Assembly (NCBI RefSeq): GCF_004010195.1
Contig: NC_057751.1
Location: 2,577,286-2,641,285, forward strand
Source of the DNA: Chiloscyllium plagiosum
Lineage: Eukaryota
DNA: 64,000 bases
Direction: 5' to 3'
Both the position numbers and the translations under genes were made by a program. The number at the start of each line of letters is the position of its first letter. Positions within the stretch are counted from its first letter, which is position 1. Positions 232 through 55,945 of this stretch are shown in pieces. Below the pieces are notes generated by a model, which was not told the origin of the DNA, made no database searches, and saw only the letters and a list, made by a program, of their open reading frames with translations.

Positions 232-1270
232 GGATGGAATTTCAGCATTTTGACCCAGCGACACTGAAGGAACGGCGATATATTTCCAAGTCAGGATGAT
301 GAGTGGCTTGGAGGGGTACTTGAAGGTGGTGGTGTTCCCATGTATCTACTGCCCTTGTCTTTCTGGATAGAAGTGGTCCTCAGTTTGGAAGGAGCTGTCT
401 CAGGATCTTTGGAGAATTTCTGCAGTGCTTCTTGTTGATCATACACACTGCTACTACTCTGTATTGCTTGTGAATATGGTGCCAATCAAATGGGCTGCTT
501 TCTCCTCGATGATGTCAAGCTTCTCGAGTGTTGTTTCAGTTGCACCCATCCAGGGAAGTGGAGTGTGTTTCAGCACACCTCTGATTTGAGCCGAGTGGAT
601 GGTAGGCAGGTTCTAGGGAGTCAGGAGTTGTCAGAAGGGGTGATATGTCCGACCGATCACCTTTACCCCACATCCATCCACCTATTGCATTCAGCTACCT
701 TCTCCCCAGCCCCAACCCCCTCCCATTTATCTCTCCACTCCCGAGACTCCCAGCCTCATTCCTGATGAAGGGCTCCGAACCAAAACATTGATTTTCCTGC
801 TCCTTGGATGCTACCTGACCTGCTGTGCTTTTCCAGCAACACACTCTTGTCATTGATGCCACACCCGGTCGAATGCGGCTTGATATCAAGGGCTGTCACT
901 CTCATCTCAACTCTGGAATTCAGTGCTTTTGTCCATGTTTAAACCAAGACTGTAAAGAGGTCAGAAGTTGGTGGCTCTGCTGGAACCCAAACTGGGCATC
1001 ACCGAGCAGGTTATTGTCGAGCAAGTCTTGCTTAATAGCACTGCTGATGACACCCATATTTATTCTCACCCTGAGAACTCTCAGGGCAATTCATTCCCAA
1101 CTGTTTCGCATTGTTTTGCCACCTCAACTGGGTCTGTCCTGTCAGTGGGATATGACATATCCAGGGATGGTGATGGTCGTGACTGGAACATAGTCATACT
1201 GATAGAATCATATCTGACTGACAGGTCAGGTTATTGCTTGACCAGTCTGTGAGACATCTCTCCCAATTTT
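232..1270 (-). mobile_element. Old CR1-like LINE fragments, interrupted by a PLE 3' end at about 640-845
   Basis: Degenerate sequence (tttgacccagcgacactgaaggaacggcgatatatttccaagtcagg...) recurs at about 60890-61130 and 62900-63960; the RT-like peptide QDITAGVPQDSSPG appears in the related copy at 63554-63778. Confidence 0.65.
640..845 (+). mobile_element. Penelope-like element 3' end (pLTR) with degenerate hammerhead motif
   Basis: Pyrimidine-rich 3' UTR followed by cctgatgaagggc...aaaacattgattttcctgctccttggatgctacctgacctgctgtgcttttccagc; matches the ends of the PLEs at 25200-25430 and 50040-50305. Confidence 0.8.
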
Positions 1271-1287
1271 GTCAGTATCATCGATAG

Positions 1288-2457
1288 TCACAGGTGAGGT
1301 GGCGGAAGACTGGAGGTTGGCTAACGTGGTGCCACTCTTTCAGACAAGAGAAGGACAAGCCAAGGAACTATAGACCGGTGAGCCTGACTGGTGGTGGGCA
1401 AGTTGTTGGAGGGAATTCTGAGGAACATGGCTTTGTCCGTGGAAAATCCTATTTCACAAACTTGATTGAGTTTTTTGAAGAAGTAACGAAGAAGATTAAT
1501 GAGGGCAGAGCGGTAGATGTGATCTGTATGGACTTCAGTAAGGCGTTCGACAAGGTTCCCCATGGGAGACTGGTGAGCAAGGTTAGATCTCACGGAATAC
1601 AGGAAGAACTCGCCATTTGGATACAGAACTGGCTCAAAGGTAGAAGACAGAGGGTGGTGGTGGAGGGTTGTTTTTCAGACTGGAGGCCTGTGACCAGTGG
1701 AGTGCCAGAAAGAACGGTGCTGGGTCCTCTACCTTTTGTAATTTGGATTTGGATGCGAGAATAAGAGGTATAGTTAGTAAGTTTGCAGATGACACCAAAA
1801 TTGGAGGTGTAGTGCACAACAAAGGTTACCTTAGATTACAACAGGATCATGGTCAATGGGCCGAGAAGTGGCAGATGGAGTTTAATTCAGATAAATGTGA
1901 GGTGCTGCATTTTGGGAAAGCAAATCTTGGCAGGACTAATTCACTTAATGGTAAGGTCCTAGAGAGTGTTGCTGAACAAAGAGACCTTGGCATTCATAGC
2001 ACCTTGAAATTGGTGTCACAGGTAGATAGGATAGTGAAGAAGACATTTGGTATGCTTTCTTTTATTGGTCAGAGTATTGGGTTTACAAAATCATGAGAGG
2101 TATGAATAGGATAAATAGACAAAGTCTTTTCCCTGGGGTAGGGGAGTCCAGAACTAGAGGGCATAGGTTTAGGGTGAGACAGGATAGATATAAAAGACAC
2201 CTAAGGGGCAATGTTTTCACACAGAGGCTGATGCGTGTATGAAATGAGCTGCCAGAGGGAGTGGTGGAGGCTGGTACAATTGCAACATTTAAAGGCATCT
2301 GGATGGGTATATGAATAGGAAGGTTTTGGAGGGATATGAGCCAGGTGCTGGCAGGTGGGACTAGATTGGGTTGGGATATTTGGTCGGCATGGATGGGTTG
2401 GATCGAGGGGTCTGTTTCCACGCTGTACATCTCTATGACTCTATCTGTGACTCTATG
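1288..2457 (+). mobile_element. CR1 (HER1-like) LINE, 5'-truncated and internally deleted RT plus 3' end
   Basis: ORF pieces NYRPVSLT, MDFSKAFDKVPH, SGVP, SKFADDTK; 3' tail ctctatgactctat; frameshifts. Confidence 0.95.
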
Positions 2458-2554
2458 TCAGTAAGGGGGATATTGCAGGGTCGACAGGAATGCTTCTGCT
2501 GTTGTCTTTGTTTCTGCTGTTAGCTGTTGATAGTCCCTAGACTCTGCCTCATGT

Positions 2555-2685
2555 GCCTGATGAAGGGTCCTGTCTGAAACTTCGATTTTCCTGCTCTTCT
2601 GTTGCTGCTTGACCTGCTGTGGTTTTTCCAGCTGCATATTTTATCGACTCTGACTTTCCAGCATCTGCAGTCCTCACTACCTCTA
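2555..2685 (+). mobile_element. Short PLE-derived hammerhead element (family A), degenerate
   Basis: cctgatgaagggtcctgtctgaaacttcgattttcctgctc...ccagcatctgcagtcctcact. Confidence 0.75.
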
Positions 2686-3590: not shown

Positions 3591-3670
3591 TCTACTGTGT
3601 CTAATCTATCCTTTACTCTGTGACCACTTTAGTGTTTTATTTTTGAATGTGAAAACAATATTGTTTTGAA

Positions 3671-3781
3671 GAGAAAATGCTGGAAAATCTCAGCAGGTCT
3701 GGCAGCATCTGTAAGGAGAGAAAAGAGCTGACGTTTCGAGTCTAACTGACCCTTTGTCAAAGCAGTGATTTGTTTTTATTT
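3671..3781 (-). mobile_element. Short PLE-derived hammerhead element (family C) with a perfect 14-bp TSD
   Basis: TSD aatattgttttgaa at 3657-3670 and 3782-3795; minus strand reads ttgacaaagggtcagttagactcgaaacgtcagc. Confidence 0.85.
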
Positions 3782-3946
3782 AATATTGTTTTGAACTTTG
3801 TACGATAGAATGAATCAGGCAATAGCGCGCTTCCACAACTCCGTGGAATTCACTGGTAATTGGAGGTAACTGGAGAGCTGTAAAATGTAGCTGTGGATTC
3901 CCCTCCGGTATTGCTCAATGCACACACTATACAGTCACATATAGGA

Positions 3947-4075
3947 TTCCTAAAGAAGGGCTCATACCCGAAACGTCAATTCTCCTGCTCCTTGGATGCA
4001 GCCTGACCTGCTGCGCTTTTCCAGCAACACATTTTCAGCTCTGATCTCCAGCATCTGCAGTCCTCACTTTCTCCT
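3947..4075 (+). mobile_element. Short PLE-derived hammerhead element (family A)
   Basis: ttcctaaagaagggctcatacccgaaacgtcaattctcctgctcc...cagcatctgcagtcctcactttctcct. Confidence 0.8.
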
Positions 4076-5175
4076 AATCACGTATGGACAGACAGGGACC
4101 AAAATGTAACACAAACATGCTGAAGCAGTTTATAGGAAATTGTTTGAATGGAATTTGTCAGACTGCAGATTAATGTTGTGCTGATGCTCCTTCACAACCA
4201 CCAATTCTTAATCAAGGGTTAATTCTTCCTTTGGAGAATATTATTCTTGGACGGTTGTGGTCATAATTATTGGGATTCCTTGTGTGCCACTCAGTTCTCT
4301 TCGGGGAAAGGAGAAAATATCTTGTCTTTCAGCCTTGTCTCAACCTCTGAGATGGCAAATGGCCAAGGACTTGTTTTTTGTGATGCTAGGTAATACTGAC
4401 AGCACTAACAATATCGTGGGCATTCAGAAGCATGAAGTAAACTCCCCCTGCTCCTCTATTCTTATTCCGAACGGAATCTGGTGCTCTCTCCATATTTCGA
4501 TAATACCTTAAACAGTGGAACTGCCAACACTGAAAACAAACAGAGGGAACTTTCACCACCTCCTCATGCTAGCCCAATTTAGCAAGATAATGGTGAGGAG
4601 AGAGAAATAATTACACATTCCATTGTTCGCAGTGAATGAAAGCCATGAAAGGAATTATTAAATAGTTTTACAGTTGCCACCTCTTTCTTTGGAAGATTTG
4701 AGATGCTTCCTGCACTGACGCAGCATCTATCTTTACACCATTGCTATTCTGCATTGTTTTCCTCCAAAATTATGAAGTGGATGATTTTATTATCAGAAAA
4801 ATGCATGCTATTGATTTGTGGGTAACATTTTGCGACAAAAAAAATGCCAGTAATCTTCAGGAAATATGCCTTTGTCTGTGGAATGAAAAATAGATTTCAC
4901 ACCACAAATATTCAAATTTCCAGATACTTGGAGACACACCAAAAGATGCATGCCATGTCAAGACCTTGTGCCAGGTACGTGCCAACTGACTACCTTCGAG
5001 CTGACATTATTGCCCAACTCCACCCGATGTGCCCAACCCTTCTCGACACCTGCCATCCTGCCATGCAGTACCATTTCCCATCAGCCACCTTGCAACCCAC
5101 CTGACACTCAACCCCTCTCCTACTTGATAACATGCCACCATACCCTTTCAACCTTCCCGTGTGAAAGTCAACATT

Positions 5176-5485
5176 GTGGGCGGCACGGTGGCACAGTGGT
5201 TAGCACTGCTGCCTCACAGCGCCAGAGACCCGGGTTCAATTCCCGACTCAGGCGACTGACTGTGTGGAGTTTGCTCATTCTCCCCGTGTCTGCGTGGGTT
5301 TCCTCCGGGTGCTCCGGTTTCCTCCCACAGTCCAAAGATGTGCAGGTCAGGTGAATTGGCCATACTAAATTGCCCGTAGTGTTAGGTAAGGGGTAAATGT
5401 AGGGGTATGGGTGGGTTGCGCTTCGGCGGGGCGGTGTGGACTTGTTGGGCCGAAGGGCCTGTTTCCACACTGTAAGTAATCTAAT
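5176..5485 (+). mobile_element. HE1 SINE (tRNA-derived, elasmobranch)
   Basis: gggcggcacggtggcacagtggttagc (A box), ggttcaattcc (B box), V-SINE core, CR1-like 3' end and taatct tail. Confidence 0.95.
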
Positions 5486-5660
5486 TGTCATTCACGTGTC
5501 TGAATTTCACATGGCATCTTTTCAACTTGGCCATGGGACTTCTATCCTGGAGTACGGCAGCAAGTGCTGTCATGATTTTGAGTCAGGTACAAAATATGAC
5601 CAGAAGTGATGTTTCTTGATATATCTGAACTGGCATTTTGAGTTGCAGTCCAATGACAAA

Positions 5661-5894
5661 GGAGTGCTGCTCTGTTACAGGGTGGGTAATTAGGGAATAC
5701 TGAACAGTCAGAGGGTCATTTCTGAGGGACTGCTGCAATTTCAGAGGGTCACTACTGAGGGAGTGCTGTAATGTCAGAGGATTAGTACTGGTGGAACACA
5801 GCACCGTCAGAGTGTCCGTGCTGCATGTCAGAGTGTCAAGGTGAGGTAATATTGCACTGTCAGACAGCTCGCATCGAGAGGGTACGGCATTGTC
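5661..5894 (+). repeat. Degenerate 33-bp tandem repeat (about 7 units)
   Basis: Unit approximates gagtgctgcactgtcagagggtcagtactgagg. Confidence 0.8.
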
Positions 5895-5972
5895 CTTAAG
5901 ACCTGAAGGTAGAGGGGCAGATCATAGAGGCAGAAAAGGTCATTCAGCCCATCAAATCTGCTCCACAATTCA

Positions 5973-6160
5973 ATGATTTGAAGGTGCTGGTGTTGGACTG
6001 GTGGACAAGGTCAAAAATCACACAACACCTGGTTATAGTTCAACGGGTATATTTGAAAACACTAGCTTTCGGAGCACTGCCCCTTCATCAGGTGCTCAAA
6101 TAGTGTTTTCAAATAAACCCGTTGGACTATAACCTGGAATCGTGTGATTTTTGGCTTGTA
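5973..6160. mobile_element. Inverted-repeat PLE pLTR insertion (family B)
   Basis: Arms at about 6003-6064 and 6101-6159; TSD attcaatga at 5968-5976 and 6163-6171. Confidence 0.85.
6057..6097 (-). ncRNA. Minimal type I hammerhead ribozyme motif (intact core)
   Basis: Minus strand reads GAGCAC CUGAUGA A GGGGC AGU GCUCC GAAA GCU A GUGUUU: stem I 6 bp, stem II 5 bp, palindromic AGCU stem III, CUA cleavage triplet. Activity is not shown. Confidence 0.75.
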
Positions 6161-7030
6161 CCATTCAATGAGATCATGGTTTACTTCATAGTCCTCAGTC
6201 ACTTTTCTACCTTTTTCCCATAACTATTGATTCCCTTACTGATTTAAAAAGTGTCTATCCCTGACATGAATAATCTGAATGACCCTATGTCAAGAGATCT
6301 CTCAGGAAAGAATTCCACAGGTCGACCACCTCTGAGAAACAACATTCTTCCTCATCTCTGTCATAAGTATGTGACCCTTTAATTTGACATTTTGCCCTGT
6401 CATCCTACATTTTCCCACAGGGGAAGCTAATTCCCGGATCTGCCCTGTCAAGTCCCCTAGTAAACTTATATGTTTCAATAAGGTCGCCATTCAAATCTCC
6501 AATGAGTATAAGCCCAACCCACTCAACCTTTCCTCGTAAAATAGTCCTTTCATACCCGAGATCAACCCCATGAACCTTTTACAAGTCAATACTCTGACAA
6601 AACATCAGACGTATCAAGGCTGCTTTTCTGTGAAAGATGCTTTGCATTTACTGCCTTGAGGACGAAGGCTCTTGGAACTTGCTCCTTAACAGCATTATGG
6701 TCTTACTGCACCCATGGACTGCAGCAGTTCAAGAAGGTAGCTCACCACCATCTTCTCCAGGGCAATCATGATGGACAGTAAATTCTGGCAGAGCCACTGA
6801 TGTCCACATCACATCAACAAATTTTTAAAAATCTCGGTGTATACATGTCAACCTCCAAGACAGTGACAACTCCCCTCCTGTTATTATTCAGATTTGAGGA
6901 AACTGTCAATGCTGCAATGAATTTCGCCTGGTATTCACAAGACTCGATTACAACTGTCTGATGAAGTATCTCATCACATATGCCTTCTGATCTGGCAGCA
7001 ACAGCACTACATGGGACAAAGTTCATCCGC

Positions 7031-7156
7031 AGGAGAAAGTGAGGACTGCAGACGCTGGAAATCAAAGTCAAAAAGTGTGGCGCTGGAAAAGCACAGCAGG
7101 TCAGGCAGCATTCAAGAACAGGAGAGTCGACATTTTGGGCATAAGCCCTTCATCAG
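7031..7156 (-). mobile_element. Short PLE-derived hammerhead element (family A)
   Basis: Minus strand ctgatgaagggcttatgcccaaaatgtcgactctcctg...; starts exactly at CTGATGA. Confidence 0.8.
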
Positions 7157-7724
7157 TAGACAAGTACTCAAGTTTCTGATCACTTTTTTTTTCTATTTCA
7201 CAACATGTGGGCAAATAGCATTTGCAAAGATTATGTTGAACCATCTTTTCAAATTGCTACAATCCAATGTCTTGATCCAGTCAAAGAGAAGGAATAGCAA
7301 TACAGTTCGACATCAAGGTAGCGAGTGGCTTGCAGGTGGTAGTGCTTCCACATATCTGCATCCCTTGTCCTTCTTCATGGTTACTGGTTCGGAAGGTGCT
7401 TGCCAAGGATTGCTGCAGTATGTTTTGTGGATGATATATTGCTACCGCTCTATCATACTGAAGGAAGTGAACATCTCAGGTAGTGGACGGAGTGCAAGTC
7501 AAGCGATTGCTTTGTCCTGGACAGAGTCAAGCTTCTTCAGTGCTGTCCCTTTCAGATCCAGTGTGGTGTATGTTTGACCTCATTTTATCTTCAAATCTGA
7601 CCACGTGGAATTATTAATTTCTTCTTCACTATCACTTCTTGTTACTCGATTCTGTTCTGAAATGGTCCTGCTTTAAATGAATCTATAATCCTGTTTTAAT
7701 GTGCTTGATTTTTAAAAAAATATA

Positions 7725-8060
7725 TTCATTCACAGGCTGAGGACATCACTGGCTAGGCCAGGAATTAATCCCCACCCCTAATTGCCCAGAAGACAGTTAA
7801 GAGTCAACCACATTGCTGCAGTTCTGGAGTCACATGTAGGCCAGACCAGGTAAGGATGGCAGTTTCCTGCCCTCAAGAACACTCGTGAACCAGATGGGTT
7901 TTTCCAACAATTGACAATGGATTCATGGTCATCATTTGACTCTCAATTCCAGGTGTTTATTGAATTCAAATTCTACCATTTGCTATGGCAGAATTTGAAT
8001 CCAGGGTCCTGGACCTGGGTCAACAGCCCAGCGATAATGATACCATGCTGTCATCTCACC
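7725..8060 (-). mobile_element. tRNA-derived SINE with CR1-type tail
   Basis: gagtcaaccacattgctg...gagtcacatgtaggccagaccaggtaaggatggcag...gtgaaccagatggg. Confidence 0.75.
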
Positions 8061-8215
8061 TGGTGTCTGATAGCTTCATGTATGTATGGTGGGGGTGAAA
8101 GTCAAAGCAGCCATGGGATTTGTATCACTCCTGAAGGACAATGACCTTGGCCAGACAAGTTAACAGCACCCCAGGAAACTGTGGACCAGTGAGCCTGACA
8201 TTGGTGGTGGGCAAG

Positions 8216-8463
8216 TTTAGATTAGATTATTATAGTGTGGAAACAGGCTCTTCAACCCAACAAGTCCATACCGACCTGCCGAAGCGTAACCCACCCAGAC
8301 CTGATCCCTTACATTTACCCCTTCACCTAACACTACGGGCAATTTAGCATGGCCAATTCACCTAACCTGCACATTTTTGGATTGTGGGAGGAAGCCAGAG
8401 CACCCGGAGGAAACCCACACAGACACGGTGAGAATGTGCAAACTCCACACAGAGAGTCGCCTG
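8216..8463 (-). mobile_element. HE1 SINE, 5'-truncated, inserted in CR1
   Basis: tagattagatt tail followed by the reverse complement of the HE1 body. Confidence 0.9.
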
Positions 8464-8983
8464 TGGGGTTGTTAGAGGGAACCCTGAGGGACAGAATGTT
8501 CACGTATTTGGAAATGCATGGACTGATTAGGGATAGTCAACATGGCTTTGTGCGTGGGAAATCATGTCTCACAAACTTGATTGAGTTTTTTGAAGAAGTA
8601 ACAAAGAGGATTAATGAGGGCAGAACGGTGGAAATGATCTATATGGACTTCAGTAAGGCATTTGACAAGGTTCTCCATGGGAGACTAGTTAGCAAGGTTA
8701 GATCTCATGGAATACAGGGGGGACTAGCCATTTGGATAAAGAACTGGCTAAAAGGTAGAAGACAGAGGGTGGTGGTGGAGGGTTGTTTTTCAAACTGGAG
8801 GCATGTGACCACAAGGATTGGTGCTGGGTTCACGACTTTTCACCATTTATATAAATGATTTGGATGTGAGCATAAGAGGTACAGTTAGTAAGTTTGCAGA
8901 TGACACCAAAATTGGAGGTGTAGTGGACAGCGAAGAGGGTTACCTCAGATTACAACAGGATCTGGACCAGATGGGCCAATAGG

Positions 8984-9092
8984 NNNNNNNNNNNNNNNNN
9001 NNNNNNNNNNNNNNNNNNNNNNNNNNNNNNNNNNNNNNNNNNNNNNNNNNNNNNNNNNNNNNNNNNNNNNNNNNNNNNNNNNNNNNNNNNNN
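8984..9092. other. Assembly gap (109 N)
   Basis: Run of N. Confidence 1.
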
Positions 9093-10195: not shown

Positions 10196-10894
10196 CAATT
10201 CTACTAATTCTCATGATTCAGCAATCTCAGGTTATATAATGGCAATCTTCCATGCCACGTCCGTTCCATTGCAAGCTAATTGATAATGTGTGATACTGGA
10301 CACTTGTACTTCCCTTGATAAGAGACTTGTTTACAGAGTACAGCATTTCAAATGTCTGCTTTCTACCAAACATTTCAATATCCCCAGCATTCTCTCTTTC
10401 CAAGTGTTCTCAACATATATTCCAAAATGGCCAGTTCAGAGCTGTTAAGACAAACCTCTGGAAAACATATGACTTAAACCGGGGAATATTCAATTTGACG
10501 CCTTTCATCTGTGTATCTGAACAATGTAACTGTATGCCATTAGCATTGACACCTTGATAGCTCTTTATTCATATCCAAAATTTTTTTTTTACTTCAAGTT
10601 TTCAAAAAGACTGTGCTTTTCTACAGTTCCCTTACAAGTTGAACCAATACCCTCGAACTTTTACTTTGGATCAAGCTGCTGTGAAAACATAAACGTTTGT
10701 AGCTTCAGTGTCCCTGCAATGTAAAACATGCTTAACCAACATTGCCTGCAAAGAATGCTAATTTCTACTTTACACAACATAATTTGCCTGTCGACAATTT
10801 TTTTTGTCAAAGTCAAACTCTGTTCAAGATCATCGGAAAATGACACTTTAATCACCATGTCCTCAGAAAGAAACCAAATAAATTTTCCAAAGCT

Positions 10895-12035
10895 TAGTTC
10901 CCCATGGTAGGCTGATGGAGAAAGTGGAGTCAAATGGGGTTCAGGGTGTCCTAACTAGATGGATAGAGAAGTGGCTGGGCAACAGGAGACAGAGCGTAGT
11001 ACTGGTAGAGAACTGTGACCAGTGGTGTTCCACAGGGATCCATGCTGGGACCACTGCTGTTTGTGATATACACAAAATGACTCAGGAAGGTATAGGTGGC
11101 CTGATGAGCAAGCTTTCAGATGATAGTAAGATTGGTGAAGTAGCAGATCGTGAAGGGGACTGTCAGAGAATGCAGCAGAAGATACACAGATTGGAGAGTT
11201 GGGCAGAGAAATGGAAGATGAAGTTCAATCTGGGCAAATGCAATGTGATGCATTTGGAAGATCCACTTCTATAGCAAACTATGCGATAAATGAAAAAGCT
11301 CTGGAGAAAATTGACGTACGGTGAGATTTGGGTGTTCATGTCCATTGTACCCTGAAGGTGGCAACGCAGGTTGATAGAGTGGTCAAGAAGACTACGGCAT
11401 GCTTTCTTTCATTGGGCGGGACATTGAGTACAAGAGTGGGCAGGTCATGTTATAGTTATATCAGACTTTGGTTCAACCACATTTGGAATACCGCATACAG
11501 TTCTGGTCGCCACATTACCAAAATCATGTGGATGCTTTGGAGAGGGTGCAGAGGAGGTTCACCAGGATGTTGCCTGGTATGGAGGGCACTAGCTATGAAG
11601 AGAGATTGAGTAGATTAGGATTATTTTGATGAGAAAGACAGAAGTTGAGGGGGAACCTGATTGAGGTCGACAAAATCATGAGAGGTATAGAAAGGGTGGA
11701 AAGCAAGAAGCTTTTTTTCCAGAGTGGGGGACTCAATTACTAGGGGTCACAAGTTAAAGGTGAAGGGAAAAAGTTTAAGGGAATTATTTATGGAAAGTTC
11801 TTTACACAGTGTGAGGGTACCTGGAACACATTGCCAGTGGAGGTGGTAGAGGCGGGCACGATAGCATCATTTAAGATGTATCTAGACAGATACATGAATG
11901 GGCAAGGAGCAGAGGGGTACAGATCCTTGGAAAATAGGTGACAGGTTTAGAGAGAAAATCTGGATCAGCACGGGCTTGGAGAGCTGAAGGGCTGTTCCTG
12001 TGTTGTAATTTTCTTTATTTTCTTTTGTTCTTTGT
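10895..12035 (+). mobile_element. CR1 LINE RT C-terminus and 3' UTR
   Basis: WIEKWLGNRRQ, SKLSDDSKIG, WAEKWKMKFN; ttctttgt tail. Confidence 0.9.
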
Positions 12036-14499: not shown

Positions 14500-14860
14500 T
14501 GAAAATTCTCATATCTTCCCTTACTTTTCACTTGTTACATTTTGTTATCATATCCTTTCCCCTCCTCCCATCCCAATTGGATTGCCTGTTCTTTCAAATT
14601 GGGCAGGAGGCACACTATTGTTCTGCTATTTTCACATTTCGATCAACTAACCTGAACTACGAACATCTTTTCTCCATCAGCACTCTACACCCACTTCCCC
14701 TACATCCCCCTCCACCCCCAAGTGATAGCAAAAATGCTGTCCCCTCCACACTTCAGTTCTGATGAAGTGCCATCTGGACTCAAAACATTAGCTACCTCAC
14801 TCTCCATGGATGCTGTCTGACCCGCTGTGATCTCCAGAATTTGTAGTTTTCACCACAAGC
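14500..14860 (+). mobile_element. PLE 3' end with family C hammerhead remnant
   Basis: Pyrimidine-rich tract then ttctgatgaagtgccatctggactcaaaacattagct...ggatgctgtctgacccgctgtgatctccag. Confidence 0.7.
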
Positions 14861-15282
14861 TTTAGTGTTAATGTCTCGGTAGAAGAGTGCAAATTGCATT
14901 TTTTAAAAATCTCGCAAGCCAGAAATCTGACTTGTCCAGTAGTAACATCAGCTGAGATCATAATAATGTTAATTAAACTGAGAGTTATAGAAGTCCCTAA
15001 CTTTTCCAAATATATTTTGAATTTATCTCAGATTCAACCATGTGACTTTTATTAGAATATTCTATCGGTATAGAGGGAATATTTTATGAGGAGAGATTGA
15101 ATAGGTTGGATCTGTACTTATTGGTGTTCAGAATGATGAGAGGTGACCTGATTAAAACAAACAAGATTGTTTGGTGGTTTTTCAGGGTGAATGCTGAGGC
15201 GCCGCATTGCCTTCTGAATCTAGGACCAGAGGGCATAAACTGAGAAGAAGGAATGGGATGAGGAAGAATGTCTTCGCTAAAA

Positions 15283-16972: not shown

Positions 16973-17689
16973 TAATCTTCTCTCAAACAGTGGTGAATCT
17001 ACAGAATTCTTTTCCACAGAAGGCTATCTGAGTTGGTTTATTCATCAAAAATATTCAAGGCTGAGACAGACAGAGTTTTAAACAGTGAAGGAATCCAAGA
17101 GTTATGGTGAAAAGGCAGAAAAGTGGGGTTGAGGATTATCAGATCAGCCATAATCTCATTGAATGGTGCAGCACACTCGATGAACTGAGTGGCCTGTTCT
17201 GAATCCCTATCTTATGGTCTTATTTCAGAGTGAACTGCCTTGCTATTATCATGGACTCAATCAGATTGAGTAAGGAAGACGGGATTCCTTAAGGGCATGA
17301 TTGAACCATGTGCAGTTTTATGACAACCAATAATTTCATTCTTGTCATGACTGATGCTAACTTTTTCATTTAATTAATGAACTGAGTTTCAATTCCTCAG
17401 GTGAGACTTGAACTTCTACCTCCAAATCAATTGTCCAAACATCTGGATTATGAACCATTAACATAAGTAATATGAAATTGTATTTGGTGTGAATTAAAGC
17501 AGTGACTTGTACATGCAGACAAGCTTCCAAGCTGGCAAGGCTTCCTTGTCCTGGGTATAATTTATAATGTTCAAAGGAAGATTGTGAGCATATCACATTT
17601 GAAAAAACATCAATATACTCTATTATCATTGCTTTAAATGATGTTAACATCTGTTTGAGTCTCAACAGATGACAATTTATGGATTCAAA

Positions 17690-19292: not shown

Positions 19293-19426
19293 TTAGGTAA
19301 AAACAATGACTGCAGATGCTGGAAACCAGATTCTGGATTAGTGGTGCTGGAAAAGCACAGCAGTTCAGGCAGCATCCGAGGAGCAGGAAAATCGAAGTTT
19401 CGGGCAAAAGCCCTTCATATCGGACT
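19293..19426 (-). mobile_element. Short PLE-derived hammerhead element (family A) with an 11-bp TSD
   Basis: TSD tatttcagata at 19282-19292 and 19427-19437; minus strand atgaagggcttttgcccgaaacttcgat. Confidence 0.9.
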
Positions 19427-39039: not shown

Positions 39040-39040
39040 C

Positions 39041-40941: not shown

Positions 40942-43213
40942 AGTTAGTTATAATCTGACAGGTTTATTTGGAAACACTAGCTTTTGGAGTGCTGCTCCTT
41001 TGTCAAGTAGTTGTGGAGGTTAAGATCATGCTCACAGAATTTACAGCCAAAGGAGTCCATTGTCACGGAGATGGGATACAATAAACAATCTTAGATTGAA
41101 AGTTTCATCTTTTATAATGGGATGATCTGATTTTTGTTCTTCAATATGTAAATCCCAGAACTTATTTTAAATTACATTCTCAAGATAGCTCAGCTTTTTA
41201 AATCATAGGTGTGAAGTCTTTCTGTGTCCCAATGCTTTTGTCAGACTGGCAAACCCTCTGTATAGTTTTACACAGTTTTACATGGATTCATGCAGTTTTT
41301 GAGCAAAATAAAATGTAATTCTGCAAAACAAATTCACCCCATTAGCTTATATGTGTGCGCATGTCGGAGCAACTGAGTGTGCATGTGAGTGTATGGGTGT
41401 GACTGCACGTGATAGAGTGTGTGTGTGTATATATATATATATATGTGTGTACGTAAGCTTGGTTAAATCTGTGCGTGAAACTGTGATGGGGTCTGTGTGA
41501 GACAGTGCGTGTGTTGGTGTGAGCACGAGGGGTGTTTGTGTGTGCATATGGGAGTGTCAGTGTGTGTGTGTCTGTGGTGCAGTGGGGTCACCTGTAGTGT
41601 GACATGAGCCCAAAGTTCCAGTTGAAGCCATTCCCATGGGGACCAAACTTGGCTATCAACTTCTGCTCAGCCACTCAGCGTTGTTGCTTGTCCCAAAATC
41701 TGCCTTGGAGATGGTCACCCAAAGGTCCAAGGCCAAATGTCCTGGACCGTGGAAGTATTCCACGACTGGGAGGGAACACTCTTGCCTGGTGATTGTTGTG
41801 CGGTGTCCGTTTATCCGTTGTCGTAGCGTCTGCTTGGTCTTACCAATGTACCATGCCTCAGGGTATCTTTGTCTGTAGCGTATGAGGTAGACCACATTGC
41901 CCGAGTCACATGAGTACTTACCCCACATATGATGGGAGATGTCCCCACGTTAATGGTGTTACCCGTGTCGAAACTCTGACACGGCTTGCAGTGGCTGCTG
42001 TGGCAGGGTTGTATGGTGTTCTTGTCCTGAAGACTGGGCAGTTTGCTATAAATCATGTCCTGTTTAAGGTTTGGTGGCTGTTTAAAGGCGAGAAGTGGAG
42101 GTGTGGGGAAGGTCTTGGCAAGGTGCACATCCTCATTGATAATGTGTTGCAGGCTGTGAAGAACATGACGTAGTTTTTTCGCTCCTGGGAAGTATTGGAA
42201 AACAAAGGGTACCCTTTGTCAGAAGCAGCCTGTGTCTGTCTCCTGAGGAGCTCATTATGATTTCTCATTGTGGCATATCGGAACTGGCGGTCGCTGAGTT
42301 GAGCATCGTACCCTGTTCTTATGAGCACTTTCAAGTGTCCGTAACATTCCTCCTCATCCCAACAGATCCTGTGTATGGGAAGGGCTTGTCCATGGGGGAT
42401 GGCTGTTTTAATATGTTTAGGGTGGAAGCTGGAGAAGTGTAGCATTGTGAGATTATCTGTGGCTTTGCGATATACTGCTATGCTGAGGTACTCATCCTTG
42501 ATGGAGGTCCCAAGAATGAATCAGATACTAAAAAGTAGTCCATAGTAAGTTTAATGGTGGGATGAAACTCATTGATATCACTGGGTAATTGTTTCAGTGT
42601 CTCCTCATCATGGGTCCAGAGGAAGAAAATGTTGTCAATATATCTGGGATAGAGTGTCAGTTGGAGGTCCTGTGCAGCAAAGAAGTCTTTTTTAAATTTG
42701 TGCGGCACATTAAGGTGCAAATTTAGTCCCCATGACCTTTCCATGTGTCTGGATGAAGAACTGGTTGCCAAAGGTGAAAACGTTGTAGTCGAGGATGAAG
42801 TAGATGCATTGTAGCATGGTGCTCGGAGATTGGCAGTTGTTGATATTGAGTACTGAGGCTGTTGGCCTGATGCCGTTATCAAGGGGGATGCTGATGCAGT
42901 GTGCCAAAACGTCCATTGTGACAAGGAATGTTCCCAACTCGATTGGTCTATGGGTGCTGAATTTCTGTACGAAATCTGTCCTGTTGCGACAGATCCCATT
43001 ATAAAAGATAAAAGTTTTCATCGAAGATTGTTTACTGTATCACATCTCCATGACACTGAACTCCTTTGACAATAAATTCAGTGAGCATGATCTTCACCTC
43101 CACAACCACCTGATGAAGGAGCAGTGCTCCGAAAGCTACTGTCGGACTATAACCTGATGTTGTGTGATTTTTAATTTTGTCCAACCCTGTCCAACACAGG
43201 CACCTCCAAGTCA
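40942..43213 (-). mobile_element. 5'-truncated PLE (family B): RT and GIY-YIG remnants, 3' pLTR and inverted pLTR
   Basis: LVTMDVLAHCISIP, GKVMGTKFAP, YPRYIDNIFFLW, NVVYLIRY...WYIGKTKQTLRQRINGH; TSD tgatgtttatgg at 40930-40941 and 43214-43225; inverted arm at 43025-43213. Confidence 0.95.
43107..43140 (+). ncRNA. Minimal hammerhead ribozyme motif (intact core, damaged stem I)
   Basis: CAC CUGAUGA A GGAGC AGU GCUCC GAAA GCU A. Confidence 0.65.
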
Positions 43214-44559
43214 TGATGTTTATGGGGAATGTTATTCACAAATTGTTCCAATGCTTTCCCCATTACAACATTTCTAAATGGACATCATTGGTTGCAGAGC
43301 AATTAGTACATTGTGTGATTGTGAAAGGCGCTAGAGAATTGCAAGTGTTTTTTTCCATTGAAGCTCAATTGACTGGAATGCGGAAAATGAAAGGCTGGTT
43401 CAGAACACATTGGAATTGAGAATTCTTGAGCTATACAAGGATATGGATACTGGTTGCAGCAGAAAGAGACAAGATGTTGTGAAACTGGAAGTGATTAATC
43501 ATTGTGATGAAGGAATTGAAAATTCAGCCTGGACTAAAAATGGATGCTAAGATTATGAACTGTTTGAATCAGTTTGAGAAGGCAGCTGAGGGAGGGAGTG
43601 AAATTAATGGTAAGGTCACAGAGATGATGGTGTTATCAAATATGATTACTTGGTCTTCACAGCATTTTATTGAATGCTATTCCAACTGTTAAATAGTTAC
43701 CACTATTTTCCAAAGACATTTAAGAGTGACTTCCTCAACACTGCTGTGAGCAACTTCAGTGAAAAAGTGCAGAATTACTAAAAAGTATGGTTTTTATGTT
43801 CTTCCATTAGCTTTCACTTTTTAGAAATAAAATATTTCAGACAAAAGAAAAACTGTTTAGTGGTGCAGGCTAATAGGAAGAAGGAAGTGATGAGATGAAG
43901 GCTTAAATGCTGGCCCACTGGTTAACTCGAATCATTATATTGCAAACTATTCACATGCAGAATTCAGTGACTAATGCCTATTTTATTTATGAGGAGCTGG
44001 AGTGTGGATAGCATCCCTGCCTTAATGCCAGACTTCCACTACAGAATTTGATGGCCAAAAAAGTTGTATTTGTAATTAGACTAAATAGGTTGAATATTGA
44101 CCTGCAAATGCTTCCAATACTCAACTTAGTGACAGGCATGAAGAGCAAGAGAGATTTCTTGCCAGAATATGCTGGAAAGAACATCTTTACCATCGCGATC
44201 CATTGTTCAAGACCATAACATGAATGTTAAAATATATGTTACCGCAGTAGCTTAGAGTCTCTGAGTAACTGTAACCACAATGAACTTATCTTTACAATCC
44301 CTATTCAAGTAAAAACATCTCCTGTATATCTACCCAGTTAACGCCTTCCACAGTCTTCACAGTCAATGTGGCTACAAGTCAGTCATGTGCAAAATAAACA
44401 AAACTTACTCCTTTATGGATAGAGGCTATAAATTCCTCAGTCACATAGCTCCTTCCAACTCTTGTGTGACAAGTGCTCAATGAACAAACTTCAGTTGTTT
44501 CTTCATTACCTTCAAAGAATTTTCAGTGGACTGAACAAAACAATGAACCAGGCATTCAC

Positions 44560-48165: not shown

Positions 48166-50308
48166 TCACAGCTTCCATAGCTTCCAACCTTATAGTTCAG
48201 GAACTATGCACCACCCAGTTCTACCTCCTACCCAGATCCACAAGCCTGACTACCCCGGCCGACCCATTGTCTCAACCTGCGCCTGCCCCACCAAATTCAT
48301 CTCCACATACTTCGATACTGTCCTATCCCCCCCGTCCAGGAACTCCCCACGTGCATTCAGGACACCACCCACTCCCTCCACCTCCTCCAAGACTTCTGTT
48401 TCCCTGGCCCCCAATGCCTCATCTTCACCATGGACATCCAGTCCCTATACACCTCCATCCGCCATGACCTGGGCCTCCAATCCCTCCATTTCTTCCTCTC
48501 CCGACGTCTCCACCAGTACCCTTCCACTGACACTCTTATTCATTTGGCTGAACTTGTCCTCTCCCTCAACAATTTCTCCTTTGAATCCTCTCACTTCTTC
48601 CAGGGGTACGTGGAACAGTCTATTTTTCATAGTTAGACCAGCACTACTCCCCACCTCTTCCTCCGCTACATTGATGATTGCATCGGCGCCACCTTGTGCT
48701 CCCAAGAGGAGGTTGAACAATTCATCAGCTTCACCAACACATTCCACCCCAACCTAAGTTCACCTGGACTATCTCAGACACCTCCCTCCCCTTCCTGGAC
48801 TTCTCCTGGACGATGACTGACCCAACACTGACATCTTCTACAAACCCACTGACTCCCACAGCTACCTGGGTTACACTTCCTCCCACCCTGCCTTGTGCAA
48901 ACATGCTATCCCTTATTCCCAATTCCTCTGCCTCTGCCGCATCTGCTCCCCGGAGGACCAGTTCCACCACAGAACACACCAGATGACCTCCTTCTTTAAA
49001 GATCACAATTTCCCCTCCCACTTGGTTGATGATGTCTCCAATGCATCTCATCCACTTCCCGCACCTCCGCCCTCGAACCCCACTCACCCAGCTGCAACGA
49101 GGACAAAACCCCCACCATGCTCATTTTCCACCCTACCAACCACTGTATATATCGCATCTTCCTCTGCCATTTCTGCCACCTACAAACGGACCTCACCACC
49201 AGAGATATATTTCCCTCCCCACCCTTATCCATGAAGACCATTCCCTCTGCGACTGCTTGGTCAGGTCCACGCCCCCCCCCCCCCCACTAACAACCCACCC
49301 TCCTCTCCCGGCATCGCAGGAATTGCAAATCCTGCACTCACACCTCTCCCCTCAACCTCCGTTAAAGGTCCCAAGGGAGCCGCACACATCCATCAGAGTT
49401 TTACCTGCACTTCCACACATGTCATTTACTGTATCCGGTGCTCCCGACGTGTTCTCCTCTACATCGGGGAGACAGGACGCCTACTTGCAGAGTGCTTCAG
49501 ACAACAGTGGGCAGCACGGTGGCACAGTGGTTAGCACTGCTGTCTCACAGCGCCAGAGACCCGGGTTCAATTCCCTCCTCAGGCGACTGACTGTGTGGAG
49601 TTTGCACGTTCTCCCCATGTCTGCGTGGATTTTCTCTGAGTGCTCCGGTTTCCTCCCACAGTCCAAAGATGTGCAGGGTCAGGTGAATTGGCCATGCTAA
49701 ATTGCCCGTAGTGTTAGGTAAGGGGTAAATGTAGGGGTATGGGTGGGCTTCGTTTCGGCGGGTCGGTGTGGACTTGTTGGGCCGAAGGGCCTGTTTCCAC
49801 ACTGTAATCTAATCTAATCTAACATGTCCGGGGCACCTGCACCAACCAACCCCACCGCCCCGTGGCCAAACACTTCAACTCCTCCTCCCACTCCACCAAG
49901 GACATGCAGGTCCTGGGCCTCCTTTGTTGCCACTCCCTAACCAGCCGATGCCTGGAGGAAGAACGCCTCATCTTCCACCTCAGGACCCTCCAACGCGAAG
50001 GCATCAATGTGGATTTCACTAGTTTCCACATTTCCCCTCCCTCACCTTATCCCAGTTCCAACCTCCAGTTCAGCACCACCCTCCTGAACTGTCCTAACTG
50101 CCCATCTTCCTTCCCACCTCCTCTCTGACCTATCACCATTACTTCCACCTCCAACCACCTATCAGCACTCTCAGCCTCATTCCTGATGGAGGGCTTTTGC
50201 CCAAAACGTCGATTTACCTGCTCCTCGGATGCTGCCTGACTGGCTGTGCTTTTCCAGCACCACACCCTCCAGTCTAATCTCCAGCTTCTGCAGTCTTCAC
50301 TTTTGCCT
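48166..50308 (+). mobile_element. PLE (family A): RT, GIY-YIG and pLTR, frameshifted
   Basis: IHKPDYPGRPIVS, TMDIQSLYTSI, FLRYIDDCIG, VIYCIRCSR..LYIGETGR; hammerhead remnant at 50182-50213. Confidence 0.95.
49507..49821 (+). mobile_element. HE1 SINE inserted in the PLE GIY-YIG region
   Basis: Full HE1; aaca flanks. Confidence 0.95.
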
Positions 50309-51914
50309 AAGAGATTTCTCCCTGCCTGACTGCAGTAGCTGTTCCTTGAATACACTCCACGTTTCAACTGTGCCCATCCCTGCAGTTTCCTTCCACACCC
50401 TATGCATCCTAAATCTTGCCTAATTGCATCATGATTGCCTTTCCCCAGGCTGTAACTTTTGCCCTACAGTATTTACCCATGCCATTCCATCACTAAAGTA
50501 AACATAACTGAATTGTGGTCACTATCACCAAAGTGCTCACAGACCTCCAAATCTAACACCTGGCCGGGTTCATTACCCAGAGTCAAATCCCTTGTTGGCC
50601 TATCTACAAACTGTGTCAGGAAACCCTCCTGCACACATTGGGACAACAACTGATCCGTCTGAAGTACTTGAACTATCGTATTCCCAGTCAATATTTGGAA
50701 AGTTAAAGGCCCCGCTAACAACTACCCTGTCACTCTCATTCCTAGCAAGGATCATCTTTTCTATCCTATCCTCTACATCTCTTGAACTATTTGTAGGCGT
50801 ATAGAAAACTCCCAGCAGTGTAACCTCTCCTTTCCTGTTTCTAATCTCAACCCATATTACCTCAGTAGATGAGTCCTCACATGTCCTTTCTGCAACCGTA
50901 ATACTGTCCTTGACTAACAAAGACACACCTCCCCATGTTTAACCAAATTCCCTGCTCTTACTGAAGCATCTTAATATCGGAACCTGTAACAATCATTCCT
51001 GTCCCTGCTCTAACCATGTCTTTGAAATGGCCACAACATCAAAATCCCAGGTACCAACCCATGCTGCAAGTTAAACTTGCTTGCCAGTGTCTTCTTGTGA
51101 TCCTGAAATCTTAGTTCTGACTTCGCTACTCTCAACCTCCCATATACTCAAACTACAATTTTGGTTCCCACCCCCCTGCGGAATTAATTTAAACCTACCC
51201 GAAGAACATTCTCAAACCACACCAACCCCCCGCCCTCCGCACCCCCCCCACCCACTCAGTTCTATTGCTCCAGAAATAAAGCCCATTTTCAATGTATTTA
51301 TTTTTATAAGAGCTTATTACCCTGAATGATGAGTTTTCATTATTTGTGTCCCAGATTTAGACACTAATTTCCCAACAGCTTGTTGCCTCCTTAATCTTCC
51401 CACCAAAATATTCTACCGAATACGAAACTGCATTGGTGATTATTCAGCAATTTCAAAATCATTTTGCAAGTTTATTAATGTTCACATAGCATTCATATTT
51501 ATCCAGCGTGGTGTAATCTATAAACTTCAGGTTACTTCTTATACTTTGAATTTCTCAGGCTAAATGGAGGATGTTAATGTTAAATAGCAATGATCCAAGA
51601 GCTGAACTCTGTGGAACATTGCTACATCGTTTTTTTTGCCACCAGTATTCAAGTGTCCAAAGTTCTGAGGAATGCAAGAGTGAGCGAATGTGCAAGACAT
51701 GTCTTCCCATGGACGACTGTTCTACAAAAACTATTTTTCCTAACTGAGTGAAAATCAGTATATCAGCATTCACAGGATAATTGCCGTGATATTGTGATAG
51801 TCCATATGTGCTGTATTGTTCTGTGACTGTTGGCTGCACTGACACATTTGCTTGCAGATGTCAGGATAATTATTAAGAAACCTTGCCTCAAGGAGAAAGA
51901 AGTTTTTTTTTGCT

Positions 51915-52210: not shown

Positions 52211-52785
52211 ATATCTGCAGATAATTTGCCTCTGCTTTGGTCAAATGTAGGAAGTTCAGGAGCTGACTCAAACAGTAACTTAAATCTGTATTCCAAGTAT
52301 TGACTTTGATGTCACTTATAGCTTGTATGTACAATGATTCATCAGCAAGAAATCAAAGTGAGAGCATGTGTCTGCATAGCAGAACTAAATACATATTCTG
52401 TGCAGTGATCACTTGGCGAAAGTTATTGAAAACATCTTGTCAAGAAATGAGAAGCAGTGATGTTAAAGTTACCATTCACTGTCCCTGATAACTCACATGA
52501 CAGTAAGGTCTTTCCTAACCTCAGGTGTTCCCCCAAAACACTTCACAGCTGATGAAGTGCACCAAGAAAAGTCACTGATGTCATTGTTGTATATCCAGGT
52601 GAGATTGTCAAATTATGTCACATCTCTAGTCAGAAGAATATACTTTTTTGTGTGAAGTTAACAAGTTCAGAGATCCCAGGTCGGTAAATGACAATAAAGC
52701 CACGCATTCCATGGTTTGAACAAACAAAATGAACTTTACAAAGTCAAGGAAGTTAACAGTGAGCAATCAGTAACTGTGGGTTTAC

Positions 52786-52955
52786 AAAGTTAAAAATCAC
52801 ACAACACCAGCTTATAGTCCAACAGGTTTATTTGGAAGCACTAGCTTTCGGAATGCTGCTCCTTCATCAGATGGTTCAGGAGTAGCAGTCCGAAAGCTAG
52901 TGCTTCCAAATAAACCTGTTGGACTATAAGCTGGTGTTGTGTGATTTTTAACTTT
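52786..52955. repeat. Perfect 67-bp inverted repeat made of PLE family B pLTR ends
   Basis: 52786-52852 is the exact reverse complement of 52889-52955; the 36-nt spacer contains the minus-strand CTGATGAAG. Confidence 0.95.
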
Positions 52956-54099
52956 TTCCATTTGGTCTTAACCACTCAACTAAACGGACAATTCTCAAGT
53001 ACCTATCTGCACGGGCCAGTTTCAAGTCCTTTTCAATGAACTGATAACTACATCCTGTAAATGTAAAACCTATTAGAGTATTAACACCTGTATCCTGAAA
53101 ATGTTGATCATATTAATGAGCTGTCTGTTATGATATGGTATGAGAAAGCATCTTCCATTCAATGCTGTAGCTTCAGCTCACAAACCAGCTTCAGCCCAGA
53201 AAGCTGTAACAGCAAGTTCTCAGAATGAAGACAACTGAAGGTCATTTTACCGCCTCTGTCTCTCACTCTAGTTCACAGCCTGAACAAGAAACCTCAATAC
53301 TAACTTATTCTCAAGTTCAGATTAACATCTGCTCAATAACAAGTCAATCTTACAACAGTAGTCATACTCTCCACGTTACACATCAAATGGTACATTTGAA
53401 AAAGGCAGATTCTGTGGATTTCTCTGCAACCCTTTCCAATACAAGTGACCCTGTGAGTAAATCTTAAAAGTTCTATCTCGTTCATGAATTTCAAATCTTC
53501 AAGTTCAAAGTTCACAATTAACTTAAAAGCTACACCAGTTCTGATGACCTCACTGATGTTCAACTCCCAGTGTTTCAACTTCTTCTCCCAAGATTGTGTC
53601 CCATTGGACTCAAAGCTAACACCTGCATAGAATTTCTGGCACGATTACAGCTCTTTGACAGTCAGCGTCCTTTACTAAGATGGCATTGCACCTCTACATT
53701 TCAGTCTGCCAAAGCTGTGGCAGGCAAATACTTATGTTGGACTCCCTTCAGACCTAACTGTCAGTGACACCAAACAGCTTTCAGGACTTTCAAACCCACT
53801 CAGCAGCACCAACACCACCTGGAACTTCTCTTGAGCACCAATGGCAAAAAGCACCTGTAATTCCATGAACCCCAACTTATCACAGCAAACAGAGACATTT
53901 CACATGTACAGTACCACCTTCTTGAGTTGCTTCAGTTTGTTACTGACTAAAACTGGCTGATGAACCCTTGAACTGCTTTCAGTGACCTGTTAAAATGCTT
54001 CCAGAATATCCTCCGCTGACAGTTGGGCGGAATCCAAGGTTGTCAGCAGCAGACCTCAATGTGCCTGAATGCTCCAGTTTCCAAAGGCTGCTAACTTCC

Positions 54100-54400
54100 A
54101 CAGCATACATGGACTCAGAAGAAAATGGATTTTATCACATCATGCAGAAAACATTACAGACAATTTGTGCAGAGCTCTGTCCCATAAATGGAGAATGACC
54201 AGAGAAAATATTCTAATGGTGCTGATTCAGGAATAAGTTTTGGCCGAGACGCTGTGGAGAACTCGTGCTCTTCCTTAAAGTGGTGACATCAAATCGCTGT
54301 CATGAGCTAGAGATGGTAGGAAGGTCCCCTTCTCCCTTACAGCAGGACTCAGTTACAGGTGAACAATGTGATCGCAAAATTGACAACCTGAAAGTCAACC
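54100..54400 (-). mobile_element. Old Deu-domain SINE remnant
   Basis: gagctctgtcccataaa...aatgaccaga...ggaataagttttggccgagac...ggagaactc. Confidence 0.5.
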
Positions 54401-55740
54401 TGATACAGAGAGAGGTAAGTTGGAATTGTTTTCCTTACAGCGGTGAAGATGAAGGAGAAATTTAATTGAGGCATTAAAGTCATGAGGGAATTTGACAGAC
54501 TAAAGAAGGAGAAACCATTTCCACTGACAGTGATTAAAGATCCAAAGTAAATTGACCTAAGTTAATTGACAAAACAACCAAAAGAAAAATGAGGTTTGTT
54601 TTTTACTCAGTGAGTTGTTCTGGTCTGGAATGTGTCCATAAACGTTTGGGCAATATGAGCAGAGAGCAAGGATACAAGAGATTAATTGATTAACTTCCTT
54701 GATGTGCTGAAAGGCCTCTTTCTGTCACATCGGATTGGACAAAGTAATGAAGCAAGTCCAAGTATTTTCCAAATAAAATATTGTTGTTGTTTGCTGGAAC
54801 ATGAGGCTAATGATTGTTTAAATCAGAGTGTGCAGTGCCTGTGAGTCCTGGCTCACAAACACGATGATTAATTGTTTATTTTGGTCTCTGTCAGTGGAGG
54901 TTTTTAATATGATAATCAATTATATCACCAAAAAAATGCAGTGCCAAAAGACACAATGAAAACTCTGCAAATCAGGCAGGTTTTAAACCATCCATCATTT
55001 TCAATATCGACACAGTCATGCAAATAACAGGGTCTTCTCGAGGAGTGAATTTAAATACTGGATCGAGGAACATCATACAGATCTCTTCAGTTGACATTGA
55101 TCAAAGTCAATCATTTTGCCGAACCTCATGACGTGGGATACTGAGATTTTTTTTTAAATGCTCTTTGAACTGTTCTGCTCAGTCTGTTCTTTTCTGTGCA
55201 AACTGAAGGACGAGTTAAAATGTCACCTTCCCAGCTTGAGAACATGCTCCAAAATCTGAGTCAAACAGTTGAGATGGAAAGGCTGACTGTTGCTGGTTTT
55301 GGAGTTCATGACCCCAGCAGCTGATGGCGTAGCCTGCAATTTTGGAGCGATGAAATCAGCAATTCTCCTATAGCACAGAGATCCTTGATGTTTGCAGAGC
55401 TGGATAAGATTTGCAAAATGGGAAGGCGTGAGGCCGTGGGGGGATTTTAAGACAGGGATGAGAATTTTAAAATTATGGTGTTAACTGGAAGCCAGTGGGG
55501 ATGAACAGAATTTGATATGAGTTGTGACACAGGCAGCAGAATGTGAGATTACCTCATGTTTATGGATGGTATACTATAGGAAGCTAGCCATGGCAGCTCT
55601 AGACTTGCCAAACCTCGAGGTAACCTGGAGCTGTACAGAGAAAGCAGAGTTAGTGTTTTACTCCAGTGACCCTTCAACAAAATGATTCTGAAGAAAGGTC
55701 ACTGAACACAAAATGTGAATCCTGCTGTCTCTCCAGAGAT

Positions 55741-55945
55741 GCTGTTGAGAGTGTGGTGGTCAGATAGCATCCAAGGAGCAGGAAAATCGACATTTTGGGC
55801 ATAAGCCCTTCATCAGGAATCCTGATGAAGAGCTTATGCCTGAAATGTCAATTCTCCTGCTCTTAGGATGCTGCCTGACATGTTGTGCTTTTCGAGCACC
55901 ACACTCTCGTCTCTGATCTCCAGCATCTGCAGTCCCCACTTTTCC
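55741..55945. mobile_element. Back-to-back PLE hammerhead hairpin (family A) inserted in an older hammerhead element
   Basis: cccttcatcagg-aat-cctgatgaag centre; TSD ctct(c/t)cagagat at 55729-55740 and 55946-55957. Confidence 0.85.

Follow-up and report, generated by a model that had tools for sequence, protein, structure and literature searches.

What are the numerous hammerhead-like motifs in a 64-kb stretch of the genome of the cartilaginous fish Chiloscyllium plagiosum, and do they still cut RNA? The stretch, called the window here, comprises 64,000 nucleotides (nt) of contig NC_057751.1 (assembly GCF_004010195.1, positions 2,577,286 to 2,641,285 of the forward strand). An earlier note, made from its letters, had counted about 20 minimal hammerhead ribozymes borne by Penelope-like elements (PLEs), in three covarying families that are called A, B and C below, and had proposed that a genome so heavily seeded with self-cleaving cores could suffer cuts in any transcript that reads through them. 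The motifs mark the ends of three PLE families with a Neptune-type endonuclease, which survive mostly as decayed short inserts, and about this identity and decay there is hardly any doubt. Furthermore, it is quite probable that these decayed ends bring about little cutting of host RNA, and somewhat more likely than not that the short copies, or stubs, arise by reverse transcription of a capped and uncut transcript.

Hammerhead-bearing ends of three Penelope-like families

Positions are counted from C3 of the hammerhead core (position 0), with the cut site at +28/+29. In family A, stem I is formed by UC/GA and stem II by GGGC/GCCC, and the stem III palindrome ACGU is followed by C. Family B has a stem I of the type YCAC, with CAC/GUG pairing, GGAGC/GCUCC in stem II and the palindrome AGCU before A; family C has AGCU/AGCU, GAGUC/GACUC and ACGU before U, and GUU is its consensus cut triplet. 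All three stems covary between the families, including stem I, which the earlier note, correct in its claim of covariation, had left unmentioned and which has 2 bp in family A, 3-4 in B and 4 in C. In the collected loci (designated L), 200 distinct intact cores contain CUGANGA, GAAA..UH, stem II and an extra base before G10.1. Positions 15.2-16.2 are palindromic without a stem III loop (ACGU in A and C, AGCU in B), and the family motifs match the proposed minimal type I hammerhead with a palindromic stem III. An Rfam scan of the window gave no hammerhead match at E values up to 1, the only hits being sub-threshold miRNA-like hairpins. There are also older, further hammerhead families, in which stem II is of the GGGTC type, the palindrome is ACGU and TCAGTT immediately precedes the core (L133-L138, L149, L188; window 32828+ and 55688+).

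The Penelope-borne nature of the motifs holds for each of the families, since the longer copies of A, B and C run upstream into remnants of a Neptune-type reverse transcriptase (RT) and GIY-YIG endonuclease, with the hammerhead downstream of GIY-YIG in all three. Reading frames with RT, GIY-YIG and a C-X4-C-X2-C linker were found for A (L007, L008, L004), B (L026, L028) and C (L039, L049), and the window copies 25339 and 50183 also carry upstream GIY-YIG remnants. Pfam, which misses most degraded GIY-YIG frames (one weak match out of 11), recognized among 11 upstream frames RVT_1 on L003 (E 1e-4) and L024 (E 2e-4), and weakly GIY-YIG on L004 (E 0.04); on 96 frames of the window it found no PLE domain, its only matches being to pieces of LINE-type RT and, once, of Pol X. 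Of 60 candidates compared with the family C protein of L039, 12 are homologous at E<=1e-10; the six best come from rays, skates and a shark (55-59% identity), which points to a cartilaginous fish as the likely host. Matches to a long homologue (P0009) are broken but collinear from RT to GIY-YIG in L121, L123, L131, L135, L136 and L139, and its alignment to 20 loci reveals RT-endonuclease remnants ending in a hammerhead, as well as inverted units. Finally, L130:7501-8865 preserves a family C tandem junction, in which a GIY-YIG end, a hammerhead and the N-terminal part of the next open reading frame (ORF) follow one another.

All 21 sites listed earlier are copies of these repeat families, but most of them are not intact motifs. 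The positions were exact or 1-3 nt off, with corrected core starts at 19421-, 25339+, 29367-, 29366+, 50183+, 15404-, 41006- and 3760-; the last of these, given as 3757- and as family C, lies in a related but distinct C-like family. Fuzzy consensus matches with at most 8 mismatches number 10 for A, 8 for B and 2 for C, whereas 20 Markov shuffles gave averages of 0, 0 and 0.05. With profiles made from collected copies, 26 are recovered in the window, of which 12 are A, 10 are B and 4 are C-like, and the copies at 6092+, 22800+, 52871+, 32828+ and 63955- had previously been missed. Many neighbouring copies are arranged head-to-head on opposite strands.

Seven of the 21 sites (2557, 6091, 25339, 25775, 29367, 43110, 52870) have kept CUGANGA, a stem II of at least 4 bp and GAAA; in three of these (6091, 43110, 52870), UH and the palindrome of stem III are preserved as well. 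Two sites, 6091- and 52870-, both of family B and situated on one strand, 47 kb apart, pass a strict descriptor that requires CUGANGA, at least 4 bp in stem II, GAAA, paired 15.2-16.2, UH and at least 2 bp in stem I. None of the 11 A and none of the 3 C sites listed is intact, and 30 shuffles yielded no strict motif.

The window is typical of the genome, as a comparison with 120 randomly placed 10-kb loci (1.16 Mb excluding gaps) shows; these contain 314 family copies, or one per 3.7 kb. The earlier estimate of about one motif per 3 kb is thereby borne out for family copies, which occur once per 3-4 kb in the random genome. The same sample contains 31 strict motifs as against 314 copies, so that about 10% are intact, and no locus had two strict motifs on one strand. 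Exact motifs number 17,044 (A), 15,808 (B) and 72 (C) genome-wide, with none for the reversed controls; by extrapolation, the genome holds roughly a million copies and fewer than 100,000 intact motifs. A rare short tandem was seen in L170 near 181 (+), where an intact family A motif is followed on the same strand, at a distance of about 47 nt, by another one with a mutated stem III.

Decay was studied in an alignment of 57 A, 20 B and only 4 C copies. Core positions outside CpG are off the majority in 5.8% of cases for A (n=57) and 5.5% for B (n=20), and the tail mismatch is 10-11%, subfamily sites included. The catalytic G12, placed after C11.1 in a CpG, decays fast and is lost from 20% of the A and 50% of the B copies. 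We infer that selection held the motif in active master elements, while the scattered copies decay, aided by methylation.

Do the dispersed cores that are still alive cut or destabilize read-through host transcripts, either alone, as dimers formed in trans, or with the help of an element protein? There is no shortage of material, with more than 32,000 exact motifs in the genome, two intact ones in the window and tens of thousands of same-family partners that could pair in trans; moreover, protein assistance has been reported in vitro (PMC11167929). However, 90% of the copies are broken, and no intact pair on the same strand occurs in the 120 loci. According to Cervera and De la Pena 2014 (PMC4209133), a single motif is without cleavage and dimers cleave at a low level, and a review says the same of dimers (PMC6765202). 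The monomers of A and C, moreover, are predicted to fold into non-ribozyme rods, in which the core pairs with stem III.

RNA reads were taken from X23, one raw single-cell run of polyadenylated (polyA) RNA from a related species, perhaps not that of the window. On a young A copy, 1,648 reads have equal orientations over the motif and no pile-up of ends at the cut site, which is a weak test; run X24 gave no matching reads. A young B copy attracted 2,889 reads from X23; most of them are sense, and they cross the cut site without a step. Loose ends at -4 on A were discounted, as subfamily divergence gives the same picture. With about one copy in ten intact, no intact same-strand pair in any 10-kb locus and published monomers inactive, the idea of a genome seeded with cores that cut read-through transcripts does not hold up. 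We regard such cutting as very unlikely, and consider it highly probable that the scattered copies cleave little host RNA.

Starts, ends and transcripts of the short copies

The ends of the copies bear on how they were made. The 5' end could be placed for 205 A copies out of 214 and for 66 B copies out of 71, with 10 A ends at gaps censored and a blur of a few nt upstream by chance matches. These ends pile up at +2..-18, where the hazard per nt in A and B copies is 0.042-0.050, as compared to 0.007-0.011 at +13..+25 and 0.0015-0.010 at -19..-90. There is no pile-up at the cut site: +26..+30 holds the ends of 2 of the 174 A and 4 of the 58 B copies at risk, which argues against cut RNA as the template. 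The position of the peak is equal for short and long 3' ends, and a fixed processivity of RT is ruled out for this reason. The upstream flanks have nothing in common except inverted arms, which rules out a spliced leader. Target-site duplications (TSDs) of up to 15 bp flank inserts, several stubs among them, and the non-inverted TSD-flanked stubs begin at the same place as the inverted ones. Inversions account for 46 of the 80 A and 18 of the 25 B breakpoints at +2..-18. When young B copies were selected by their tail, 5 of 30 began exactly at -8, an A within an initiator-like TCCACA. Two further candidate peaks of family A were set aside, one at -99..-135 because it was an artefact produced by gaps, C-rich sequence and references in inverted orientation, the other at +33 as likely subfamily divergence.

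Genome-wide, 14,012 B copies that reach -8 have the templated C before it and 3,293 have another base. Among the first 100 listed non-C bases, 67 are G, 23 T and 10 A. Inspection by eye placed a junction at this point in 39 of 40 fetched G copies as against 7 of 20 T/A copies (Fisher p 2e-7), the other T/A copies being point changes in long copies; a subfamily variant, which would fit 1 of the 40, is ruled out as the source of the extra G. An extra G at the full-length 5' ends of L1 and SVA has been ascribed to copying of the cap (PMC3287187), and by analogy the extra G at B -8 suggests a copied cap. In the head-to-head B inserts of L334 and L229/L230, the arm that ends at -8 has an extra base on the antisense side too.

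Downstream of the core, family B contains at +40..+60 an A(A/T)TAAA hexamer followed by a GT-rich stretch (window 6091-, 16895+, 52870-; L212:1498-1518). Loose ends of polyA reads on B accumulate 12-15 nt past this hexamer, with 378 reads at +57 and 458 at +60. The B inserts themselves extend beyond this site and end in two clusters, at +80-87 or at +107-125. Of B copies in head-to-head arrangement, 32 pairs were found; 26 of these could be scored for a 2-nt indel, and in 5 the two arms disagree there, against a background substitution of 2.9%.

On this basis, we lean towards a capped run-off origin of the stubs. The tandem element transcript would start at the initiator-like A, which precedes the core by about 8 nt in family B and 4 nt in family A, and the hammerhead would thus be the first item in the mRNA. 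The RT start sites (+80-95 and +120-130) would be situated downstream of the B polyA site, and a start beyond that site implies priming either on the copy close to the 5' end of the mRNA or on tandem RNA made by read-through. In the first case, run-off at the cap would produce stubs of 90-135 bp; in the second, long copies would result, and priming from both nicked strands would give rise to head-to-head pairs. The ribozyme itself would be active only in the tandem transcript, made up of a pseudo-long terminal repeat (pLTR), the ORF and a second pLTR, as a dimer and together with an element protein, and CpG decay at C11.1-G12 would disable the scattered copies. A more daring idea, put forward tentatively and in our opinion rather improbable, is that the pLTR is built like retroviral U3-R-U5: the capped start would lie 8 nt ahead of the hammerhead, the polyA site about 30 nt past the cut site and the RT starts beyond it. 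The hundreds of thousands of stubs would then be strong-stop cDNAs that were integrated before they could jump to the 3' copy, and the hammerhead, active only as a dimer, would be there mainly to pair the two R copies for that jump (or for decapping of the mRNA) and less for releasing it. In the main texts of the open-access literature, we found nothing on point about a start-site or cap signature of PLEs.

Several observations weigh against the overall explanation. No intact full-length element is present in 20 long loci, and, small as the intact fraction is, extrapolation to the whole genome still leaves about 95,000 strict motifs. Core mismatch is below the tail mean of 10%; subfamily variation in the tail may explain this, but the difference could also hide weak selection. 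Family C is without a clear 5' peak (40 of 55 copies placed). As to the extra G, it fits the last base of the opposite arm equally well in 20 of the 39 junctions, 3 further junctions are ambiguous and only 16 follow filler or host sequence; G also makes up 5 of 10 non-templated bases at B -6 to -4 in a local control. In family A, the G excess at -5, just before its -4 peak, is weak (11 G and 9 A among 113 copies). The polyA reads may come from few loci and from another species. Finally, the arms of head-to-head pairs are discordant in 19% of cases, less than the 41% expected for random template pairs, and fold-back may contribute to these pairs.

The points on the G and on the arms are also those on which a different origin of the stubs can be built, namely that RT stalls, or the cDNA folds back, at the hammerhead during 3'-primed copying, with the G as an end-joining microhomology instead of a cap. 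Over half of the near-core breakpoints are inversions, palindromic junctions have been interpreted as self-priming (PMC3846280), and, besides the 20 G junctions compatible with the opposite arm, the indel state agrees in 21 of the 26 arm pairs. However, the breakpoints are found on the far (5') side of the hairpin, with an abrupt stop upstream; non-inverted, TSD-flanked stubs share the start position; 16 of the 39 G junctions come after filler or host sequence; and some arms differ in sequence and 3' end. As the source of the stubs, stalling or fold-back is the main alternative, possible if doubtful.

The uniform size of the 90-135 bp units, together with their TSDs, could also be that of a self-propagating non-autonomous family, comparable to SINEs or retrozymes and multiplied through hammerhead-made circles; retrozymes of animals, for which a derivation from PLEs has been proposed, are known from one chondrichthyan (bioRxiv 10.64898/2026.07.22.740005). 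However, the units are not in tandem arrays, they neither start nor end at the cut site, their 5' ends are ragged, and they have subfamily variants in common with the long ORF-bearing copies. We give this possibility hardly any credence and still favour a capped, uncut element transcript as the source of the stubs.

The copies in the window

Family A is represented by two pLTR ends, one at 754-856 (+) with a broken stem II and G12 lost, the other at 25331-25435 (+) with the palindrome ACGU changed to ACAU. Upstream of the latter motif (25339), a frameshifted remnant of the Cys linker and GIY-YIG is visible at 24750-25150 (+) in the translation as read by eye, and has no Pfam match. End pieces are situated at 2554-2676 (+), where the stem III palindrome is lost; at 3945-4070 (+), starting at -4 after a G and with a mutated core; at 7036-7158 (-), starting at the core and with G12 lost; and at 19299-19418 (-), starting at +3 inside the core and flanked by an 11-bp TSD. 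A further copy, with a GIY-YIG C-terminal remnant and a mutated core, spans 49830-50303 (+), and a tail lies at the edge of the window (63955-64000, -). Two head-to-head pairs belong to this family: 29246-29449, with cores at 29367- and 29366+ and both palindromes lost, and 55716-55941, the arms of which end at -3/-4 and have GAAAC mutated in both.

In family B, the end piece at 5971-6095 (-) contains an intact minimal hammerhead (core 6091), and the inverted second arm of this insertion, without a core, follows at 6092-6163 (+). The head-to-head pair at 52778-52961 is similar in that 52870- passes the strict descriptor and the + arm has no core. At 43100-43216 (+), core, stems II and III and UH are intact, and stem I was lost by a 3' deletion. 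The core is mutated in the end of a longer copy at 15283-15413 (-), in the end piece at 16885-16985 (+) and in the copy at 40947-41016 (-); the end of another longer copy (21537-21645, -) has lost G12, and the copy at 22800-22894 (+) is decayed. Family C has an end with an upstream extension of about 200 nt at 14750-14862 (+), G12 and palindrome lost, and an end piece at 25768-25900 (+), palindrome lost. To the C-like family belong the end piece at 3668-3765 (-), with a mutated 5' core, and an old copy at 32828-32966 (+).

The upstream end of the long B copy 15404- is occupied by an AT-rich, near-perfect inverted repeat (15762-15833) with weak matches to miRNA models. Fragments of LINE-type reverse transcriptase or endonuclease are found at 1288-2096, 8331-8858, 10882-11274, 31644-32653, 37276-37554 and 50600-50938. 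The segment 38677-38990 (-) matches the thumb of Pol X family polymerases (PF14791, E 4e-9) and has an in-frame stop; it looks like a piece of a DNA polymerase lambda pseudogene. A match without interruption is found at G000:C22:45003789-45004004.

Relation to known systems

The copies constitute a fossil record that bears on the role of the hammerhead in PLEs. Tens of thousands of junctions suggest a capped and uncut template, which argues against replication by cleavage and circles as the main route, and exact candidate positions for the start and the polyA site emerge. As to effects on the host, the polyA signals of family B look likelier than self-cleavage, and could truncate host transcripts in which they lie in sense orientation.

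The ribozyme is an expected example of the class described in 2014, at an unusually high copy number. PMC4209133 reports the motif in PLE pLTRs; fish, coelacanth and Xenopus have thousands of copies, most of them solo. As there, the motif is of type I, with an extra base between 9 and 10.1, a G10.1-C11.1 pair and palindromic 15.2-16.2, and a genome contains several covarying families, mostly as solo copies from truncated PLEs and as opposite-strand pairs. The copy number is far higher here (over 32,000 exact motifs and, by extrapolation, about a million decayed copies, whereas coelacanth and Xenopus have 4,000-9,000), stem I is 2-4 bp instead of the 4-5 bp described, stem II is 4-5 bp, and the host is a cartilaginous fish. 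On shark PLE hammerheads, the main texts of the open-access literature yielded nothing on point.

Animal non-LTR retrozymes, among them the tandem ones of one chondrichthyan (bioRxiv 10.64898/2026.07.22.740005), resemble the present copies in their type I hammerhead, PLE ancestry and chondrichthyan occurrence. They are described as tandem units, each with a hammerhead, whereas the copies studied here are dispersed or head-to-head; tandem units of this kind with intact hammerheads were present neither in the 120 random loci nor within 47 kb in the window.

Among PLEs, Schostak 2008 and Arkhipova 2013 have placed promoters within the pLTR and described palindromic inverted junctions. A CX2-5CxxC linker marks Neptune and, in reduced form, Nematis, and is absent from Penelope/Poseidon in the account of Craig et al. 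2021 (PMC8557442). The elements considered here share with the Neptune clade a GIY-YIG C-terminal to the RT, this linker, 5'-truncated, tandem and inverted inserts and a tail of 30-40 bp, and are tentatively assigned to it by these features. The closest functional data are those of Frangieh et al. 2024 on an anole PLE (PMC11167929): RT initiates internally at two sites, both strands are nicked and extended, the hammerhead cuts only with protein, unprocessed RNA is the main template, and there are no reads ending at the cut site. This element, Poseidon_Ac of the green anole, is similar to the present ones in that the hammerhead sits where pLTR and ORF meet, the 3' ends fall at two positions separated by about 35 nt, and there is no sign of ends at the cut site. 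Unlike Poseidon_Ac, the elements of C. plagiosum have the Neptune Cys linker, and their copies provide genomic evidence for start and polyA sites that flank the ribozyme.

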